This document shows positions 38,704 through 47,628 of a DNA stretch of 64,000 nt, one piece after another. A program made the position numbers and the translations under genes. The DNA is taken from NCBI GenBank assembly GCA_039090665.1, contig JAWCSL010000001.1:1-64000 (forward strand), in the 5' to 3' direction. Under the pieces are notes generated by a model that was not told the origin of the DNA, did not search any database, and saw only the letters and a program-made list of their open reading frames with translations. Numbering within the stretch: position 1 is the first letter of the stretch; each line of letters starts with the position of its first letter. The stretch is from Candidatus Aenigmatarchaeota archaeon (GTDB lineage: Archaea; Aenigmatarchaeota; Aenigmatarchaeia; CG10238-14; SCSR01).

Positions 38704-39603
38704 TACTGAGTTATATTATTTATTTGCTCATGGGTCTTGGCGTTGGGCTTTTGATCAAGTCAAACAAGACATGAGATGAAATAGCCTATTCTGACTCATG
38801 AGATATTGGCCTGAAGTGAAAGAGCTTCAGGTAGGTTGATTGGTGAAACCTAGAGGTAGGGCCCGCCAATTCTGGTTGATCCCGCCAGAGGCCACTGCTA
38901 TCCGGCTTCGACTAAGCCATGCGAGTCGAGAGGGGAAAGCCCTCGGCGCACTGCTCCGTAATACACAGTCAACCTACCCTTAGCTGGGGGATAATCCCGG
39001 GAAACTGGGGCTAATACCCCATAGGTGCTAGGTACTGGAAGGTCCTAGCGCCGAAAGCTCCGGCGGCTAAGGATGGGACTGTGGCCTATCAGCTTGTTGT
39101 GGAGGTAAAGGCTCCACAAGGCGATAACGGGTACGGGCTATGGAAGTAGGAGCCCGGAGATGGACTCTGAGACATGAGTCCAGGTACTACGGTACGCAGC
39201 AGGCGCGAAAACTTCTCAATGCTCGCAAGAGCGAAGAGGGAAGCCGGAGTGCCCTTGCTCTGCAAGGGCTTTTGCGGTCTGAAAACGGGACCGCGAATAA
39301 GGGGTGGGTAAGACGGGTGCCAGCCGCCGCGGTAATACCCGCGCCCCGAGTGGTGGCCACGATTATTGGGCCTAAAGCGTCCGTAGCCGGTCTGGTAAGT
39401 CCTCAGTGAAATCCTCTAGCAAACTAGAGGGCTTGCTGGGGATACTGCCAGACTTGAGACTGGGAGGGGGCAGGGGTACTCCCAGGGTAGGGGTGAAATC
39501 CTGTAATCCTGGGGGGACCACCTGTGGCGAAGGCGCCTGCCTGGAACAGGTCTGACGGTGAGGGACGAAAGCTAGGGGAGCGATCGGGATTAGATACCCC
39601 GGT

Positions 39604-39682
39604 ACACGAGGTTGGGTATCTTCTGATTTAAAGATGAAGAAAAATCCCAACTCAAGCTAGGATTTCCTAACTCGTGCGGGAA
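39604..39682 (+). ncRNA. 16S BHB intron 1 (after Ec U801) with K-loop and antisense elements
   Basis: CCCG/CGGG helix, GTA and AAA bulges; removal restores GATACCCCGGTAGTCC. Confidence 0.9.
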
Positions 39683-40082
39683 AGTCCTAGCCGTAAACGA
39701 TGCCCGCTTGGTGTTGCAAGCTTCTCGGGAGCTTGCAGTGCCGAAGCGTAGGTGTTAAGCGGGCCGCCTGGGGAGTACGCCCGCAAGGGTGAAACTTAAG
39801 GGAATTGGCGGGGGAGCACACAAGGGGTGGGCGTTGCGGTTCAATTGGATTCAACGCCGGAAATCTTACCAGGGCCGACGGCAGGATGAAGGTCAGTCTG
39901 AAGGGCTTACCAGACGAGCCGAGAGGTGGTGCATGGCCATCGTCAGCTCGTACCGTGAGGCGTGCGCTTAAGTGCGTTAACGAGCGAGACCCACACCCCA
40001 TGTTGCTAACTGCTTCTCCGGAAGCAGTGCACTCATGGGGGACCGCTGGCGATAAGCCAGAGGAAGGAGTGGGCGACGGTAG

Positions 40083-40170
40083 ACAGGTAAAAGGCTCAAG
40101 ACCGATTCATGTGAAAAAAAGATGAGCATGAATATCGCCCAGAGCCGTACATGTCTTTTACCTGACCGAA
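40083..40170 (+). ncRNA. 16S BHB intron 2 (after Ec 1197), H/ACA-like hairpin
   Basis: CGGT/ACCG helix, AGA and AAG bulges; removal restores GACGGTAGGTCCGTATG. Confidence 0.9.
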
Positions 40171-40451
40171 GTCCGTATGCCCCGAATGCCCTGGGCCACA
40201 CGCGACGCACAATGCGCGCCACAATGGGATGCGACCCCGAAAGGGGAAGCAAAGCCCCTAAAAGCGCGCTCAGTTCGGATCGAGGGCTGTAACTCGTCCT
40301 CGTGAAGCTGGAATCCCTAGTAAGCGAACGTCATCATCGTTCGCTGAATACGTCCCTGCTCCTTGCACACACTGCCCGTCAAGCCAATCGAGCGGAACTC
40401 CATCGAGGCTTGCGATGAGCAAGTCGAGTTGGAGTTCTGTGAGAGGGGCTA

Positions 40452-40557
40452 ATCTTGGGGGTCCAGAAAAAAATAATATGAAAGAATTGGCTTGACTCTG
40501 ATGTGATGATGAGATGGAGGTGAGTTGATTGCTTGTATGGACCTCCCAAGAGCCTAA
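40452..40557 (+). ncRNA. 16S intron 3 (between Ec A1492/A1493) containing a full box C/D sRNA
   Basis: GGGC/GCCT helix, TAA and AAA bulges; removal restores GGGGCTAAGTCG; C, D', C' and D boxes present. Confidence 0.9.
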
Positions 40558-40832
40558 AGTCGCCACAAGGTAGCCGTACGGGAACGTGCGGCTGGATCAC
40601 CTCCTTACGTGCAACCCTACCTCAGGCACCATAAACAACCCTACCTGAAAGAATTTTCCTTTTTATCAGTACCAAAGTAAAAAAAATTAAGCTCGAATCT
40701 TTACCATTATCCTCAAATTTTTCAATTCTTTTCTTAAACTGTTTTCAAAAAGCTTGTGTTAACTAAAAACTAAAATAAATGAGAGAAAAATAGCTACCGA
40801 GCTTATAAAATAATAAAAATTGGGAAACCATT

Positions 40833-42851
40833 TCAAGCAAGAATAGCATATCTAGCGATCAAAGAAGCAAAGACAGAAGCTGTTAAAGACATGACTGTTA
40901 TCATTGTGTTCAAACTTGGTCCTGCTGTGTCCTTGAAAGGATCACCAACAGTATCACCAACAACAGCAGCCTTATGAGCTTCTGAACCTTTTCCACCAAA
41001 AGCCCCTTCTTCTATCAGCTTCTTAGCATTGTCCCAAGCTCCACCAGAATTTGCCATGAAAAGAGCAAAAATTATTCCTGTGATTATACTTCCTGCTAAA
41101 AAGCCCGCTAAAGCCTCTTTTCCCAAAATGAAGCCAACAAGCAAAGGTGCAGCTATAGCAAGCAAACAAGGAAGCATAAGCTCTCTTAAAGCACCTTTAG
41201 TTGCTATGTCCACGCATTTGGCATAATCAGGTTTAGCTTTTCCTTTCATCAATCCAGGAATTTCTTTAAATTGCCTTCTCACTTCTTCTATCATACGAAA
41301 AGCATTTCTCCCTACTGCCAAAATCAATAAAGCCGAAATCACAGGAGGCATCATGCTACCAATAAAAGTCCCAACTATAACCTTAGGCTCCATCAAGTTT
41401 ATTGAAAACAAACCAGTAGTCAAATCTTTCCTTATTTCAACAACTTCAGCGTAAGCCCCAAGCAAAGCCAAAACTGTTAAAGCTGCAGCACCAATCGCGA
41501 AACCTTTTGTTATTGCTTTTGTTGTATTTCCCAAAGCATCAAGTCTGTCTGTAATTTCCAAGACTTTGCCTTTCAAACCAGCTTGTTCCGCTATTCCTTT
41601 TGCATTATCGACAATTGGACCATAAGCATCAGAAGAAATTATCATTCCAACTATTGCTAACATACCCACTGCTGCTATAGCCACACCATAAAGATTACTT
41701 ACACCGAAAGCCCCTGCAAGATGCCAAGCTGCAAGCATTGCTACACAAATTCCGATGATTGAAGGTACAATGCTCAAGATTCCATAAGAAAAGCCTGAGA
41801 GGATGTTGATAGCAGCTCCTGTTTTTGCAGCTTCTGCTGTTTTTTTCACAGGAGCTTTATCGATTGATGTATAGTAGTTTGTTGTTATTCCTATAATCAT
41901 GCCAGATATAAGTCCAGCTAAAGTTGGTAAGAGAACACCAAAAGTTTGGTTTCCAAGTTCAAGAGCTTGAATCACAAAAAATGTTAAAATTGCAAAAATA
42001 AAACAAGTGGAAAAGGTTCCAACATTCAACGCAAGATTAGGGTTCTTTTTCTTGGCCAAATTGACGAAAATTAAACCAAGAAGAGAGGAAAAAATCCCAG
42101 CAGCTGCTATCAACAAAGGCAAGAAGATAAAGCTTGGAGCAATTGCTTTCCCAATTATCATGGCAGCTATGATGCTTGCTATGTAAGAATCTATCAAGTC
42201 AGCACCCATTCCTGCAACATCACCCACATTATCACCCACATTATCAGCAATAACAGCAGGATTTCTTGGGTCATCTTCAGGAATTTCCATTTCCACTTTT
42301 CCCACCAAATCAGCTCCAATATCTGCTGTTTTAGTGTAAATGCCACCACCAGCTTTTGCAAACAAAGCCAAAGCACTTGCACCAAAGCTGAAACCCAAAA
42401 CAATCTCAGGATCTTGGTAAATTTGGTATAAAATGCTTATGCCAAGCAAAGCTATGCCAACTATCATTAAACCCATGATGGCCCCACCATAAAAACCAAC
42501 AGAAAAAGCTTTTGCTAATCCTTTTCTTGCTGCATTTGTAACCCTAACATTTGTTTTAACTGCTGCCAGCATTCCAAAGTAGCTTGCTATAGCAGTGGAA
42601 AAAGAGCCAAGCAAGTAGGCTAGAGCTATGTCTGGGCTTAAGAAGAGAAAAATAAGAGTTGTCATGATGACAACGAAAATTGCCAAATAAAGATTTTGCC
42701 TCTTCAAGTAAGCTTTTGCTCCCACTTTTATCGCTTCAGAAATTTCTTCCATTTTTTTGGTTCCCGGGCTTTGTTTGCTCACATGGAAATACAAGTAACA
42801 AGCTGTGAAGATCGAAGCTAAGCCTGCGATTGTTGGGATTGAAGCAAACAT
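40833..42851 (-). CDS. hppA: membrane-integral pyrophosphatase (GNTTKA, K+-independent type)
   Basis: [39 protein letters not shown]. Confidence 0.96.
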
Positions 42852-42908
42852 GAAATCACGATATATAAAAATTTTGTTCGATGATAACTTAAATTTTAAA
42901 CCATAAGA

Positions 42909-43320
42909 TTAAGTTAAGTAGTGCCTACATATTTCTAAAACTTTCCTACATTTTTCACACAAAAAATTCTCTATCCTTAAGTTAGAAGGATTGATTGACC
43001 AAAGATATTCGACCAACTCTTCGACCTTACTATAAGGATACATTAAACACTTGTATTTGTAATCTGGCTCATAATGATGAGTCAATCCGAATTTATTTTC
43101 AGCTATTTCATGTAAAAACCCGCAACTCAAAAATCTCTTCTTGATTTCTAAATATTGATTTGAAATAAAGAAAGTAGATAAATAAATTGACAAATAACTT
43201 TCTTTATCGATTTCTAATATGTTAGAAGCTGCCCAGCTCTTAAGGCCTCTCTCAAGAAAGTGATACGGAACTTCAGATCCTTCTGTGTAAAAGAATGGGC
43301 CGTAAAGTAATAATTTTCAT
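42909..43320 (-). pseudogene. hypothetical gene with apparent +1 frameshift just after the ATG
   Basis: ATGAAAATTATTA: removing one A opens a frame (MKLLLYGPFFY...) continuous with ORF 42909-43193. Confidence 0.5.
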
Positions 43321-43347
43321 TCCACACTATTAAGTTATTCTTTTTAT

Positions 43348-43696
43348 TTATGAAAGGTAAAACCAAGTCGAAAATCTCATTAAATTACAGGAGTGTTGAT
43401 CTTCATAAGTTTCTTTTGCCAATTTCAGTATTTTTTCTTTTGAATCTAATCCATATTTTCTAAGGATTTTCCAATTTTCTTCAGTTAGATTTCCAATTGA
43501 ACTTTCTGTAAGCTGAAGAAAAATTTTCTTTCCTTCTTCAGTTTCTTTGCAATTATCGGAAATTCTAATTTCCAATTGGAAAATTATTTTCAAGAAGAGT
43601 TTTCTTCAAAATATCTTCTAGTTCTCCATTTCTTTTTTCCACTAATATATCAAACCTTCTCATATTTTATCTGTAATATTTCTTCTGTCAAATCAT
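43348..43696 (-). pseudogene. hypothetical gene interrupted by single-base insertions
   Basis: frames join as ...YEKV-DILVEKRNGELEDILKK...FPI-EIRISDNCK... after removing single duplicated bases. Confidence 0.45.
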
Positions 43697-43786
43697 TTTT
43701 TTCAAAAAATCTATTTAGAGTAAGAAATTTTAAAAAATATAAAGAATTTAGTTTAAGTTCACAATTATTTAATACCAGCTCAAAAC

Positions 43787-43858
43787 GGGCCGGTAGATCA
43801 ATGGTAGATCGCCTCGCTTGCAACGAGGAGGCTCCGGGTTCAAATCCCGGCCGGTCCA
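43787..43858 (+). tRNA. tRNA-Ala(TGC)
   Basis: GGGCCGG/CCGGTCC acceptor with G3:U70; CCTCG-CTTGCAA-CGAGG. Confidence 0.96.
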
Positions 43859-43885
43859 TCAATGAAATTTTATTAAATTTAAATT

Positions 43886-43900
43886 CGAAATCTTTATAAA
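43886..43900 (+). promoter_or_regulatory. BRE/TATA promoter of the 23S unit
   Basis: CGAAA-TC-TTTATAAA ~25 nt before a GCCGGTG...CATCGGC hairpin. Confidence 0.6.
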
Positions 43901-43973
43901 TACAAAATACAACTTATTTATTTGCCGGTGTCAGTATGTCTGCTTAATTCGAGCATCGGCTTTCTTTATTTTA

Positions 43974-44033
43974 GCGATGAGCTTTGTCTTTCTCTGCTGA
44001 CAAAAAAGATGAAGATGTGGACACCTTGTGAGC
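43974..44033 (+). ncRNA. candidate box C/D sRNA in the 23S leader (A)
   Basis: C ATGAGCT 43977, D' CTGA 43997, C' ATGAAGA 44009, D GTGA 44028; 12-13 nt spacers. Confidence 0.65.
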
Positions 44034-44080
44034 AAGCTGCATGCAACTCCTTATTGAAAGAATAAGGGGTGAAGAGTGGA

Positions 44081-44141
44081 GGTTGATGATAACATTTATT
44101 CGCCTGAAAAAAGATGAAGAGCGAACTGTCTATTTGAAACC
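44081..44141 (+). ncRNA. box C/D sRNA in the 23S leader (B)
   Basis: GGTT/AACC terminal stem; C ATGATAA, D' CTGA, C' ATGAAGA, D TTGA; guides match 16S 39293-301 and 23S 47193-202. Confidence 0.82.
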
Positions 44142-46181
44142 ATAAGATGACACTACCACAGGATCAAGGAGGTCACTAAGGCCTAACAAGCTGACCCCAC
44201 TTGGTGGATAGCTTGGCTTCGGAGCCGAAGAAGTACGTGGCAAGCTGCGATAAGCCTGGGGTAGCCGCATGCAGGCGTAGATCCCAGGATCTATGAATGC
44301 GAATCGCTGGCTTCGGCCAACTCCGAAAGGAGGGGGAACGCGCTGAATTGAAGCATCTTAGTAGGCGCAGGAAAAGAAATCAAATTGAGATGCCGTTAGT
44401 AGGGGCGACCGAAAGCGGCAGAGGGCAAACCGAACTGGTTGGCGAAGAGCCAAACAGGATGTGGAGTTGTAGGACCTGTGTCCTTCCTATCCTAGCCGAC
44501 CTGAAGTCTGCTGGAAAGCAGCGCCAAAGAGGGTGATAGCCCCGTAAGGGAAGGCTAGGAGGAAGATGGCAGGTATCCTGAGTACCATTTCCTGGATGGG
44601 AAGTGGGAAGCTGGGTGAATTAACATCCAACCCTAAATACTCCCGAAGTCCGATAGCGAACTAGTATGGTGACAGAAAGCTGAAAAGCACCGCGAAAGCG
44701 GGGTGAAAAGAGCTTGAAACCAAGTGGGGATAGTCAGACACGGCCCGGAAGGTGCTCCTTCGAATGAAATCCGAAAGGAGAGTAAGAGAAGGAGCTTACA
44801 GGGTCGTGTCGTCCGTGCGGAAACACGGGGCAGGGAGTTTGTCTCAGTGGTGAGGTTAACTTGCTTTCACAAGGTAGCCGGAGCGAAAGCGATTAGCCCG
44901 CAACTGTTCTTTATGGACAGTGAGGGGCAGGGTATGAAAGTGCCTGAAATCACTGGGACAAGACCCGAAGCCAGGCGATCTAACCCTGGGTAAGGCGAAG
45001 TCCCTCGAAAGGGGGATGGAAGCCTGCTACCGGTGCTGAGTTACAAATCGCTCGGGTGACCTGGGGTTAGTGGTGAAAAGCCTAACGAGCCTGGCGATAG
45101 CTGGTTCCTCCCCAAATGCACGTCAGTGCAGCCTGGTCGGAGGTAGGCAATGGGGTAGAGCTACTGATTGGAAGGTCAAGGACCGAAAGGTTCAGCCTTC
45201 CTGTCAAACTCCGAATCCATTGCCACCTGAGAAGACCGGAGTGAGGGTGCTGGGGTAAGCTCGGCACTCGAAAGGGGAACAACCCAGCCTAGGGTTAAGG
45301 TCCCTAAATGCTAGCTAAACGCTGAAGGGTGTCTGAACCCTCAGACAGTAGGGCTGTAGGCTTAGAAGCAGCCATCAGATAATAAGTGCGTAACAGCTTA
45401 CCTACCGAGGGTTCGGGCCCCGAAAATGGAAGGGACTAAGCTAGCTACCGATACCCTAGACCGCGAAAGCGGGGGTAGGGAGGCGTCCTGCATGGGCAGA
45501 AGCCTCTGCGTGAGCAGGGGTGGACCGTGCAGGATTGAAGATCCTGCCGAAAGTAACAGCAAAGTTAGGTGAGAATCCTAACCACCTGAAGCCTAAGGGT
45601 TTGCCAGCAATGTTGGTCAGCTGGCAGTTAGCCGGTCCTAAGGGTGCTCTTAACCGAAGCACTCGAAAGGGAAAGCCGTTAATATTCGGCTGCCATGGGG
45701 ATACGTGCGGCGACGCAAGCCAGTTTTCCGACGCTTCGGGATAGGCAGACGCAAGCTAACTGCCGAAGTGAGCGGAGTCTCTTAATGAGGAGAAGCTCAT
45801 GAAGGCAGGAATGGCTCCTCGTATGAGGAGTTCTGCTGATTCCTGGAGCCCGTGAAAAGGAAAACTGGAAGGATTCCCCATGACCGTACCGAGAACCGAC
45901 ACAGGTAGGCTTGCCGAGAAGGCAAAGGTGTGTTGGGAGAACCCAGCCTAGGGAAATCGGCAAGTTGGCCCCGTATCTTCGGTAGAAGGGGTGCCTGTTC
46001 TCTCGCAAGGGAGAGCAGGTCGCAGTGACAAGGGGGAAGCGACTGTTTAACAAAAACGCTGGAGACCGCAAGTCCGAAAGGATGTGTACGGTCTCTGATG
46101 CCTGCCCAGTGCCGGTGTGTGAAAGCCCGGTTCAACGGGAAGAAGCCCCGGCAAACGGCGGCGGTAACTCTGACCGTCGTA

Positions 46182-46231
46182 ACTCAAGGCGGTCATTTGA
46201 TTTAATGATATTCCGCTGCCTTGGGCGGCAT
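46182..46231 (+). ncRNA. 23S intron (after Ec A1927) with D'/C' guide for H69
   Basis: GTCG/CGGC helix, TAA and ATA bulges; GGCGGTCA antisense to 46171-78. Confidence 0.85.
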
Positions 46232-46360
46232 AAGTAGCGTAATCCCTTGCCGTTTAAATGACGGCCCGTCTGAACGGCTTAACGACTTCCCCACTGTCCT
46301 GGGCTGGGACCCAGTGAACTCGCCTTTCCGGTGAATAGGCCGGAGACCTCCTGTGGGAAA

Positions 46361-46391
<31 letters not shown>

Positions 46392-46545
46392 GTGTTGTGG
46401 TAAGGTTGTGACTGCATAGAGTAGGTAGGACTCGCTATTAGGCTGAGGCTTCGGCCGAAAGCTGAGAGGAAAGTGTAACACTACCCTTTCGCAACCTTAC
46501 CGCTAACTCGAAAGAGGACAGCACCAGATGGGCAGTTCGGCTGGG

Positions 46546-46631
46546 AGTCTAGAAGTCTAAATGAGGAGTCCCTTAAGTTATGATTTTTTATGATTAAGGG
46601 CATACGAACCGAAAGGCTTCTAGACCAGCAA
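46546..46631 (+). ncRNA. 23S P-loop intron (Ec G2252/G2253) containing a full box C/D sRNA targeting 16S
   Basis: GCTG/CAGC helix, GGA and AAG bulges; removal restores GGCTGGGGCGG. Confidence 0.93.
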
Positions 46632-46686
46632 GCGGTACGCCCTCGGTAAAGGATCGAGGGCGCCCAAAGGTCAGCTCATCCGGGTC

Positions 46687-46775
46687 ATGGTAGAGTCTAG
46701 TAAATGATTGGACCGTTCCAGAATGATCTTAATGATTTCTGAGGTAGCTGATGAGAATAGGCTCTACCACCCGCA
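46687..46775 (+). ncRNA. 23S H84 intron (after Ec ~C2306) containing a box C/D sRNA
   Basis: CGGG/CCCG helix, TCA and CAA bulges; removal restores CCGGGTCAGAAATCCGG. Confidence 0.9.
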
Positions 46776-46919
46776 AGAAATCCGGAGTAGAGTGTAAGCG
46801 CAAAAGCTGGCCTGACTGGATTCCGCAAAGCGAGGAATCCAGCCGCGAAAGCGTGGGCTAGCGATACTTCGGTTCCTCTTAATGGGGGCCGGAGGTATCA
46901 GAAAAGCTACCTCGGGGAT

Positions 46920-46973
46920 AAACTAGCTAGGGCTGATTAAATTATTTTTCTTCATATCTAGCTAGTTCCCTAA
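46920..46973 (+). other. 23S hairpin intron after Ec U2449
   Basis: GGGG/CCCT helix, ATA and AAA bulges, 10-bp AACTAGCTAG stem; removal restores GGGGATAA. Confidence 0.88.
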
Positions 46974-47001
46974 AATGGGCCCGTGGCCGGCGAAAGCCCA
47001 C

Positions 47002-47072
47002 TGCTCGAAGGGGTTTTTCGTCCCAAAGATAGCGAGCCTCGGGTTCTGAACTCGAGCCCTTCGCGCGGGTAA
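47002..47072 (+). ncRNA. 23S H89 intron (after Ec ~2477) with antisense elements to the PTC
   Basis: GCCC/GGGT helix, ACT and AAA bulges; removal restores GCCCACATTGACCC. Confidence 0.88.
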
Positions 47073-47628
47073 ATTGACCCGGCGCGTTGGTGCGTCGATG
47101 TTGGCTCCCCCTCTCCTGGCCGTGCAGCAGCGGCCAAGGGTACAGGTGCCCACTGGTTAAAAGGGGACGCTAGCTGAGTTCAGAACGTCGTGAGACAGTT
47201 CGGTCGCTATCTACAGGAGGTGCTGGTCGTCTGACCGGAAGGAAGGGTTAGTACGAAAGGAACACCCTTCCGTGGCCTCTGGTCTACCGGTTGTCCATTT
47301 GGCATCGCCGGGCAGCCAAGCCATACGTGGATAAGAGCTGAATGCATCTAAGCTCGAAACCACCCGGAAAAATAGACGACCACTCTTGCTACTGGTGCGC
47401 AAGCATCGGTGGCAAGACGAAGGCCCCTGTAGACTACAGGTTTGATAGGGGAGAGGTGTAAGCCTCAAGCTTTCGAGCGAGAGGCGAGCCTGCTCCTACT
47501 AAAAGCCTGAGTTGTTAGGCCTTGATAAGCTCCTTGATCCTGTGGTAGTGTGAAAAAATTCTGATTCTCCCAAAAATATATACTAGAGTAGAGAAAACTT
47601 ATTTAATTGTCACTACATAGTAGTTATT

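Follow-up and report, generated by a model that had tools for sequence, protein, structure and literature searches.

Box C/D guide RNAs and BHB introns are each textbook features of RNA biology. Intron-encoded box C/D snoRNAs are equally familiar from eukaryotes, in which they reside in spliceosomal pre-mRNA introns and are matured by exonucleolytic trimming. They share several traits with the intron described here (intron 1, in a 23S rRNA gene): both lack a promoter, are released by splicing, and have their output linked to that of a host gene that serves translation. The hosts differ, as the eukaryotic host is a pre-mRNA and not the rRNA itself, whereas intron 1 is carried by rRNA. Archaeal pre-tRNA-Trp contains a similar system, represented by sR50 in Pyrococcus and its counterpart in Haloferax volcanii (Clouet d'Orval 2001; Singh 2004, as cited in PMC7994747). 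Like intron 1, it is a BHB intron with a dual guide that arises from transcription of its host gene, is released by the splicing endonuclease and is capable of acting in trans. However, its host is a tRNA and its targets, C34 and U39, lie in its own exons, while the 23S-borne intron 1 has its targets in the RNA of the other subunit. The 66-nt intron of tRNA-Met in Nanoarchaeum equitans is a further parallel, since there, as here, a DPANN archaeon holds a C/D-like stable RNA in a BHB intron, but again the host is a tRNA. Mobile C/D sRNAs have been proposed, in a passage that treats tRNA introns as the only hosts known at that time (Randau 2012, PMC3491384).

Archaeal rRNA genes have BHB introns of their own. 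The 23S intron of Desulfurococcus mobilis, which encodes I-DmoI, is spliced in the same manner and, like intron 1, interrupts a functionally central rRNA site. The known examples carry either a homing-endonuclease ORF or no cargo, according to the relevant part of a 2013 review (PMC3608112), in contrast to the C/D guide of intron 1. The same part of that review leaves open whether rRNA introns yield non-coding RNAs. In its section on guide hosts, a 2021 review names only tRNA introns (PMC7994747), and the target-prediction passages of Lui 2018 mention rRNA introns only as sequences removed ahead of the prediction. In full-text literature searches, no archaeal rRNA intron containing a C/D sRNA came up, and the hosts found there were tRNA introns only. 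By these searches, what is new in the present case is the host, an rRNA intron; the guide class is already known, and both target sites have been predicted before.

The stretch of DNA analysed (the window, 64,000 nt) belongs to the genome G000 of a hot-spring archaeon. This genome is very small (0.62 Mb in 15 contigs, with an assembly completeness of 90.6%), and the order to which it belongs comprises Aenigmatarchaeota relatives. The archaeal Rfam models place a 16S rRNA gene at 38869-40605 and a 23S rRNA gene at 44179-47522, each exceeding the length of its model. In the local Rfam LSU alignment, an insert of 88 nt stands against two model positions, directly after ...GGCUGGG. Relatives without an intron read ...GGCTGGG/GCGGTA... 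uninterrupted at the exon junction, and the intron limits are therefore set as listed in Table 1. MAFFT alignment with E. coli K-12 rrlH puts the exon junction between G2252 and G2253. Both results bear out the intron, splitting the P-loop at exactly this place, that a sequence-only reading of the window had proposed.

Table 1 Features of intron 1 and its 16S rRNA targets (window positions; Ec, E. coli numbering)
Feature	Position	Strand	Remarks
BHB intron 1	46546..46631	+	86 nt, in 23S P-loop, Ec G2252/G2253
BHB 5' half	46537..46546	+	outer helix TCG, central GCTG 46540-43, bulge GGA 46544-46; cut after 46545
Inner helix, 5' strand (also sRNA terminal stem)	46547..46557	+	11 pairs with 46615-46625
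Box C ATGAGGA	46561..46567	+	GA core present
D' guide GTCCCTTAAGTT	46568..46579	+	12 nt, for 16S U912; 46569-79 pairs with 16S
Box D' ATGA	46580..46583	+	unchanged among variants
Box C' ATGATTA	46590..46596	+	same variant box in the free-standing sRNA L096
D guide AGGGCATACGAA	46597..46608	+	12 nt, for 16S U1203; 46598-606 pairs with 16S
Box D CCGA	46609..46612	+	from sequence and variant comparison
BHB 3' half	46615..46632	+	inner helix 46615-25, central CAGC 46626-29, bulge AAG 46630-32; cut after 46631
16S target 1	39793..39803	+	predicted 2'-O-methyl U at 39797 (Ec 912)
16S target 2	40174..40182	+	predicted 2'-O-methyl U at 40176 (Ec 1203)

The ends of the intron fold into a BHB motif with an outer helix TCG/CGG, a 4-bp central helix GCTG/CAGC, the bulges GGA and AAG, and an inner helix of 9-11 bp. 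Cuts behind the second base of each bulge would leave GGCTGGG joined to GCGGTA, which is the uninterrupted P-loop. The MFE fold also contains two 3-nt bulges on opposite strands, shifted by one pair from the register of the canonical drawing. Sequence comparison supports the structure. When nine distinct variants are compared at the 21 named pairs, every one of the 189 cells is paired and six pairs have changed on both sides, a result matched by none of 500 shuffles. The inner helix alone is paired in 99 of 99 cells, with both-sided changes in five pairs, and the 5' half of the motif is unchanged in all nine variants. The features that define a BHB intron are thus found together: homologues are contiguous at the site, 3-nt bulges face each other across a 4-bp helix, and the genome encodes both the splicing endonuclease EndA (PF01974, 94.8 bits) and the RtcB ligase (PF01139, 547.2 bits).

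RNA data point in the same direction. In RNA runs from two studies (X1 and X2, neither of them small-RNA libraries), contigs join position 46545 to 46632, with zero depth over the intron. These junctions come from contigs and not from reads, and an intron-less near relative could give the same joint. In one X2 contig of 158 nt, neither 23S intron is present, and the two aligned pieces listed, 128 of its 158 nt, depart from the exon sequence of the window by a single base and a single gap. Two further runs searched as raw reads (X12 and X13) matched at 90-95% likeness in a conserved part of 23S only; these matches come from other organisms and carry no information on intron 1. Splicing of intron 1 in RNA is likely.

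Between the splice sites, the intron has the layout of an archaeal box C/D sRNA. Terminal C and D boxes enclose internal D' and C' boxes, and both guides have the usual length, with 12 nt from C to D' and 12 nt from C' to D. The gap between D' and C' is 6 nt in the window and 3-5 nt in relatives. The box pairs ATGAGGA/CCGA and ATGATTA/ATGA are variants of the consensus (RUGAUGA, CUGA), and both GA dinucleotides are kept. In the window, G-C pairs connect C position 5 to D position 2 and C position 6 to D position 1. The former pair covaries, being A-U in seven of the nine variants, G-C in one and G-U in one, and all nine variants have a U-A pair between C' position 6 and D' position 1. The features of the class that can be read from a genome are present: terminal boxes, internal C'/D', guides of about 12 nt, a paired position 5 and encoded proteins. 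Fibrillarin (PF01269, 289.8 bits) and Nop5 (PF01798, 215.3 bits) are encoded by adjacent genes on contig 3. An L7Ae-family protein, either L7Ae or a paralogue, is encoded as well (PF01248, 62.4 bits), with one TGA within the match. No Rfam C/D family reached its gathering score in the window, and at E<=1 the region 46380-46900 gave only LSU rRNA and a chance DUF805b match. This miss is irrelevant to the class assignment because the C/D families of Rfam are species sets.

Each guide is complementary to 16S rRNA over one contiguous stretch. The D' guide forms 11 of 11 Watson-Crick pairs with target 1 and the D guide nine of nine with target 2, guide position 5 included in both cases. MAFFT alignment with E. 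coli K-12 rrsH gives 39797 as Ec 912, 39800 as 915 and 40176 as 1203. Chance was assessed with shuffled guides against 4637 nt of spliced 16S and 23S rRNA, scoring the contiguous Watson-Crick run through guide position 5. Among 3000 shuffled versions of the D' guide, eight reached a run of 11. For the D guide, 123 of 3000 shuffles reached 9 (a frequency of 0.04), and this match taken alone is no more than suggestive. Targets in the host 23S rRNA or elsewhere in 16S were also considered and rejected, as the remaining matches of the intron-1 guides in the spliced 16S and 23S rRNA have at most 7 Watson-Crick pairs, or 8 with G-U. The target-2 variant CCGTATGCCC was tried as a test too; it is present in 15 of 26 loci and in all four intron-bearing genomes with 16S data, a weak association that depends on kinship. 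The sequence-only reading had already described this arrangement, and it fared well. Its box and guide coordinates and strings were all correct when re-read, the 11/11 match to 39793-39803 and the 9/9 match to 40174-82 were recovered on recomputing the complementarity, and the alignment confirmed that the N+5 rule falls on U at Ec 912 and U at Ec 1203.

The best support for the two 16S sites as the genuine targets comes from beyond the clade, since the same two guides have been recorded as free-standing genes in other archaea (Dennis et al. 2015, PMC4644070, Additional file 1). Sac-sR101 of Sulfolobus acidocaldarius (...GTCCTTTAAGTA followed by CTGA) and Mka sR114 of Methanopyrus kandleri (...ATCCTTTAAGTG followed by CCGA) are entered there with the target 16S U894, and Mka sR52 of M. 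kandleri (...GGGGCATACGGT followed by CTGA) with 16S U1190. The core of the first two differs from that of the intron's D' guide only by a T for C opposite 16S position 915, which is A there and G here. The D guide core of Mka sR52 is identical to that of the intron. In all three sRNAs, the distance from guide to box is the same as in the intron, and the same 16S nucleotides are thus addressed. U912 and U1203 are therefore already-predicted archaeal methylation sites. The published sRNAs are separate genes in which each guide has another partner, whereas intron 1 joins the two; judged by these sequences, it is a combination of two old guide modules.

Both guides also recur within the order in other settings. 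Free-standing dual-guide sRNAs that use the U912 guide as D guide were observed at L081 (G043), L083 (G073) and L096 (G106). The D' guides of L083 and L096 (GTGATGGGC... and ATGATGGGC...) resemble the other guide of Mka sR114. The U1203 guide was observed as the D' guide of a C/D unit in tRNA introns at L100 (G036) and L101 (G045). These two introns are homologous, about 55-60 nt long, and located in the anticodon loop of distinct tRNA genes, which inspection by eye assigns to Thr(CGU) for L100 and Arg(CCU) for L101. ARAGORN called no tRNA at either locus.

The distribution of intron 1 was determined by exon homology, which provides an unbiased sample. The search covered 117 genomes of the order, 61 of which have this part of the 23S rRNA gene. 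Intron 1 is present in five of the 61 (G000, G017, G030, G102 and contig 29 of G005), spread over three genera. G005 is a 1.7-Mb bin with at least three 16S/23S sets (contigs 3, 26/50 and 29); it is probably mixed, and its copy of intron 1 on contig 29 is close to the G030 type. In G036, the P-loop of the 23S rRNA gene (L019) is interrupted 2 nt downstream from the position of intron 1 by some 660 nt of inserted sequence that contains a long open frame. A pattern scan with fixed guide cores yielded four genome loci and ten metagenome loci, with the 5' P-loop exon in 14 of 14 and both exons in 13. Because the search pattern fixes the guide cores, these loci say nothing on guide conservation.

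The five introns found through their exons are about 76% identical to that of G000, and the variation is unevenly spread. Of the 24 guide columns only four are variable, each of them at the end of a guide, compared with 20 of 34 columns in stem, linker and spacer. Moreover, several guide-end changes improve the pairing with 16S rRNA. A G to T change at position 12 of the D' guide extends the pairing to 12/12, an A to G change at position 2 of the D guide gives a 10-bp duplex, and in G102 an A to G change at position 12 of the D guide lengthens the duplex with the 16S rRNA of the same genome to 11 bp. The D guide forms 10-11 pairs in the variants of G030, contig 29 of G005 and G102. The GA core is substituted in two of the five introns (two of the nine variants), namely in the C box of G102 (ATGTAGA) and the D box of G017 (CTAA), and these changes would weaken L7Ae binding.

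These patterns bear on the idea of a selfish or decaying element, in which a mobile C/D unit sits in a BHB intron at an insertion hot spot and is harmless but unneeded, or needed only in some lineages. The patchy occurrence in 5/61 genomes and three genera fits such an element, as do the core-box substitutions in G102 and G017 and the presence in G036 of an ORF-bearing insert at a distance of 2 nt. A same-genus relative, G007, also speaks for it, since its P-loop lacks intron 1 and it has no other recognisable U912 guide copy. A search for a free-standing U912 guide with up to two mismatches in G007, G006, G014, G023 and G033 gave hits of no better quality than the reversed-pattern control. 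Nevertheless, the guides have been kept while the rest of the intron diverged, and the changes at their ends strengthen the match to 16S rRNA. In addition, the 90.6%-complete assembly of G000 contains no second copy of either guide in a C/D setting; beyond intron 1, the 9-mer and 8-mer cores are found only where no C/D boxes surround them. We consider a purely selfish or decaying element quite unlikely.

A structural role was weighed as well. In this case the motifs and a hairpin would merely help to present the BHB to the endonuclease, the match to 16S rRNA would be incidental, and no methylation would follow. In the naked RNA, the D' guide and D' box do pair with the C' box and D guide, both in the MFE fold and in RNAalifold, and the 7-bp core of this hairpin (CCCTTAA/TTAAGGG) is fully conserved and would compete with the K-loop. 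The damaged GA core in two of the five exon-found variants is also in line with a structural element. However, the hairpin shows no covariation although the neighbouring stem covaries freely, and conserved guide bases, the CATACG unchanged in 5/5 exon-found introns, reach past it. The hairpin is therefore regarded as a competing fold and not as the cause of the conservation. A structural element would also hardly account for the fact that both guides match, register included, the guides of free-standing sRNAs from other phyla and are found again in other hosts of the order. Overall, such a role is very unlikely.

Target 2 begins 3 nt past the 3' splice site of a 16S intron, so that pairing could influence the BHB of that intron, and the two targets lie in the h27 region and h34, which we take to be late-folding, buried parts of 16S rRNA. 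A function of the guides as a folding or assembly chaperone for pre-16S rRNA, or as a checkpoint linking the subunits, with methylation secondary or absent, is nonetheless hardly credible, given a geometry that is exactly of the methylation-guide type with N+5 on a paired base, the encoded fibrillarin and Nop5, and the methylation role that Dennis et al. 2015 (PMC4644070) assign to these guides in other archaea.

The reading we prefer, with a probability of roughly 0.8, is that of a canonical BHB intron whose cargo is a dual-guide C/D sRNA that methylates 16S U912 and U1203 in trans. Intron 1 would be transcribed within the pre-23S rRNA, and its C/D and C'/D' K-turn motifs may bind L7Ae, Nop5 and fibrillarin. 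The splicing endonuclease is expected to cut both 3-nt bulges and RtcB to join the exons, which would restore the P-loop. RtcB probably also circularises the intron, in which case the 9-11-bp inner helix would become the terminal stem of the sRNA. The RNP could then pair in trans with pre-16S rRNA and direct 2'-OH methylation of U912 by the D' guide and of U1203 by the D guide; the guide presumably acts after excision rather than before it. Lacking a separate promoter, the guide would be made once per 23S transcript, and its supply would be tied to rRNA synthesis. As far as sequence comparison goes, the guide RNA in intron 1 is genuine and conserved and belongs to a known class; its targets are credible and its action is predicted. 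Independent comparative evidence thus supports the central proposal of the sequence-only reading, a P-loop intron with a dual C/D guide for two 16S sites in trans.

Two further suggestions made from the window alone stood in part. The first was that guide and target have co-evolved at Ec 915. A comparison across archaea agrees with this, with T opposite position 915 in Sac-sR101 and Mka sR114 and C in Aenigmatarchaeota, where the C is common to the intron and the free-standing guides. Comparison within the clade gives no such sign. Among the 25 16S loci of the order, 24 have G915, and the comparison of guide and position 915 reveals no tracking event inside the clade because the only relative with A915, G018, lacks the intron. 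The second suggestion was that modification of the 30S subunit depends on splicing of the 50S precursor. The sole guide copy and a 16S rRNA that is likely transcribed apart from 23S rRNA agree with this. The 16S-23S gap (40606-44178, 3.5 kb) contains, on the minus strand, a 672-aa ORF and two short ORFs; because the 672-aa ORF lies between the genes on the opposite strand, separate transcripts are very probable. On the other hand, G007 argues against a strict dependence, and the guides are possibly dispensable, because this genome has neither intron 1 nor a recognisable copy of the U912 guide. As for the surroundings, a tRNA-Ala gene is located just upstream of the 23S rRNA gene, and the 16S-23S spacing is the same in G030.

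Several other units of C/D type were observed in the rRNA genes. The second 23S intron (intron 2, 46687-46775, 89 nt, Ec 2306/2307) is also a dual-guide C/D unit, enclosed in a BHB with the central helix CGGG/CCCG and the bulges UCA and CAA. Its C box ATGATTG starts at 46704, followed by the D' guide (46711-22), the C' box at 46732 and the D guide (46739-50). The D' guide forms 10 bp, two of them G-U, with the spliced P-loop across the junction left by intron 1, with G2251 at N+5. As this duplex spans the intron-1 junction, intron 1 must leave first in G000. The D' guide of intron 2 also tracks P-loop substitutions in L015 and in family f5. The D guide addresses 23S 46904-15 (U2438), with nine contiguous Watson-Crick pairs, or 11 bp when ten Watson-Crick pairs and one G-U are counted. 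At the intron-2 site, 19 of the 30 loci compared have an insertion of comparable length.

The 16S rRNA gene carries a C/D-like intron at 40453-40556 (104 nt), which reads ATGAAAG, a 13-nt guide, CTGA, ATGATGA, a 12-nt guide and TTGA. The D' guide of this unit is complementary to 16S rRNA over 11 Watson-Crick pairs, with N+5 at 40381 (Ec A1408, in the decoding centre), and its D guide is without a good rRNA match. In the 5' leader of the 23S rRNA gene, downstream of tRNA-Ala, there are one or two C/D-like units at 43977-44033 and 44086-44139; the D guide of the latter has 10 Watson-Crick pairs to 23S 47195 (Ec A2600). Two 16S inserts absent in relatives, 40083-40170 (88 nt) and 39605-39682 (78 nt), do not have the full C/D layout. 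The former has a canonical-looking BHB (CGGT/ACCG, with AGA and AAG as bulges), and its end lies 3 nt short of target 2. At 23S 46944-47073, in the loop of helix 89, an insert of 130 nt stands against five model positions; it is either an intron or an expansion, and no C/D boxes were seen in it. A relaxed C/D pattern applied to the whole of G000 gave 141 candidates, 28 of them with a guide run of at least 9, mostly with poor boxes and within coding sequence.

A broader view of these units is that the rRNA transcripts are the main carriers of guides for ribosome methylation in this Aenigmatarchaeota lineage, through the two 23S introns, the 16S intron and the 23S leader, and form an ordered circuit across the subunits. 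We regard it as a tentative proposal with the odds somewhat against it. If true, the intron of the 23S P-loop would be the only guide source for two 16S sites, and the removal of intron 1 would precede the pairing of the intron-2 guide with the restored P-loop and the methylation of G2251. The guide dosage would be one per rRNA transcript, and the cargo would shield the intron from loss, as a form of addiction.

The more limited reading, of intron 1 as a spliced carrier of a dual 16S guide, would by itself have consequences for the biology of these archaea. If true, archaeal rRNA introns would gain a cargo and a function beyond homing endonucleases, and eukaryotic intron-encoded snoRNAs would have a prokaryotic parallel. 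Modification of the small subunit would hinge on transcription of the large subunit, and a route to circular C/D sRNAs via tRNA-splicing enzymes would be added. It would also show how a 0.6-Mb genome can spare promoters and balance the dosage of its guides.
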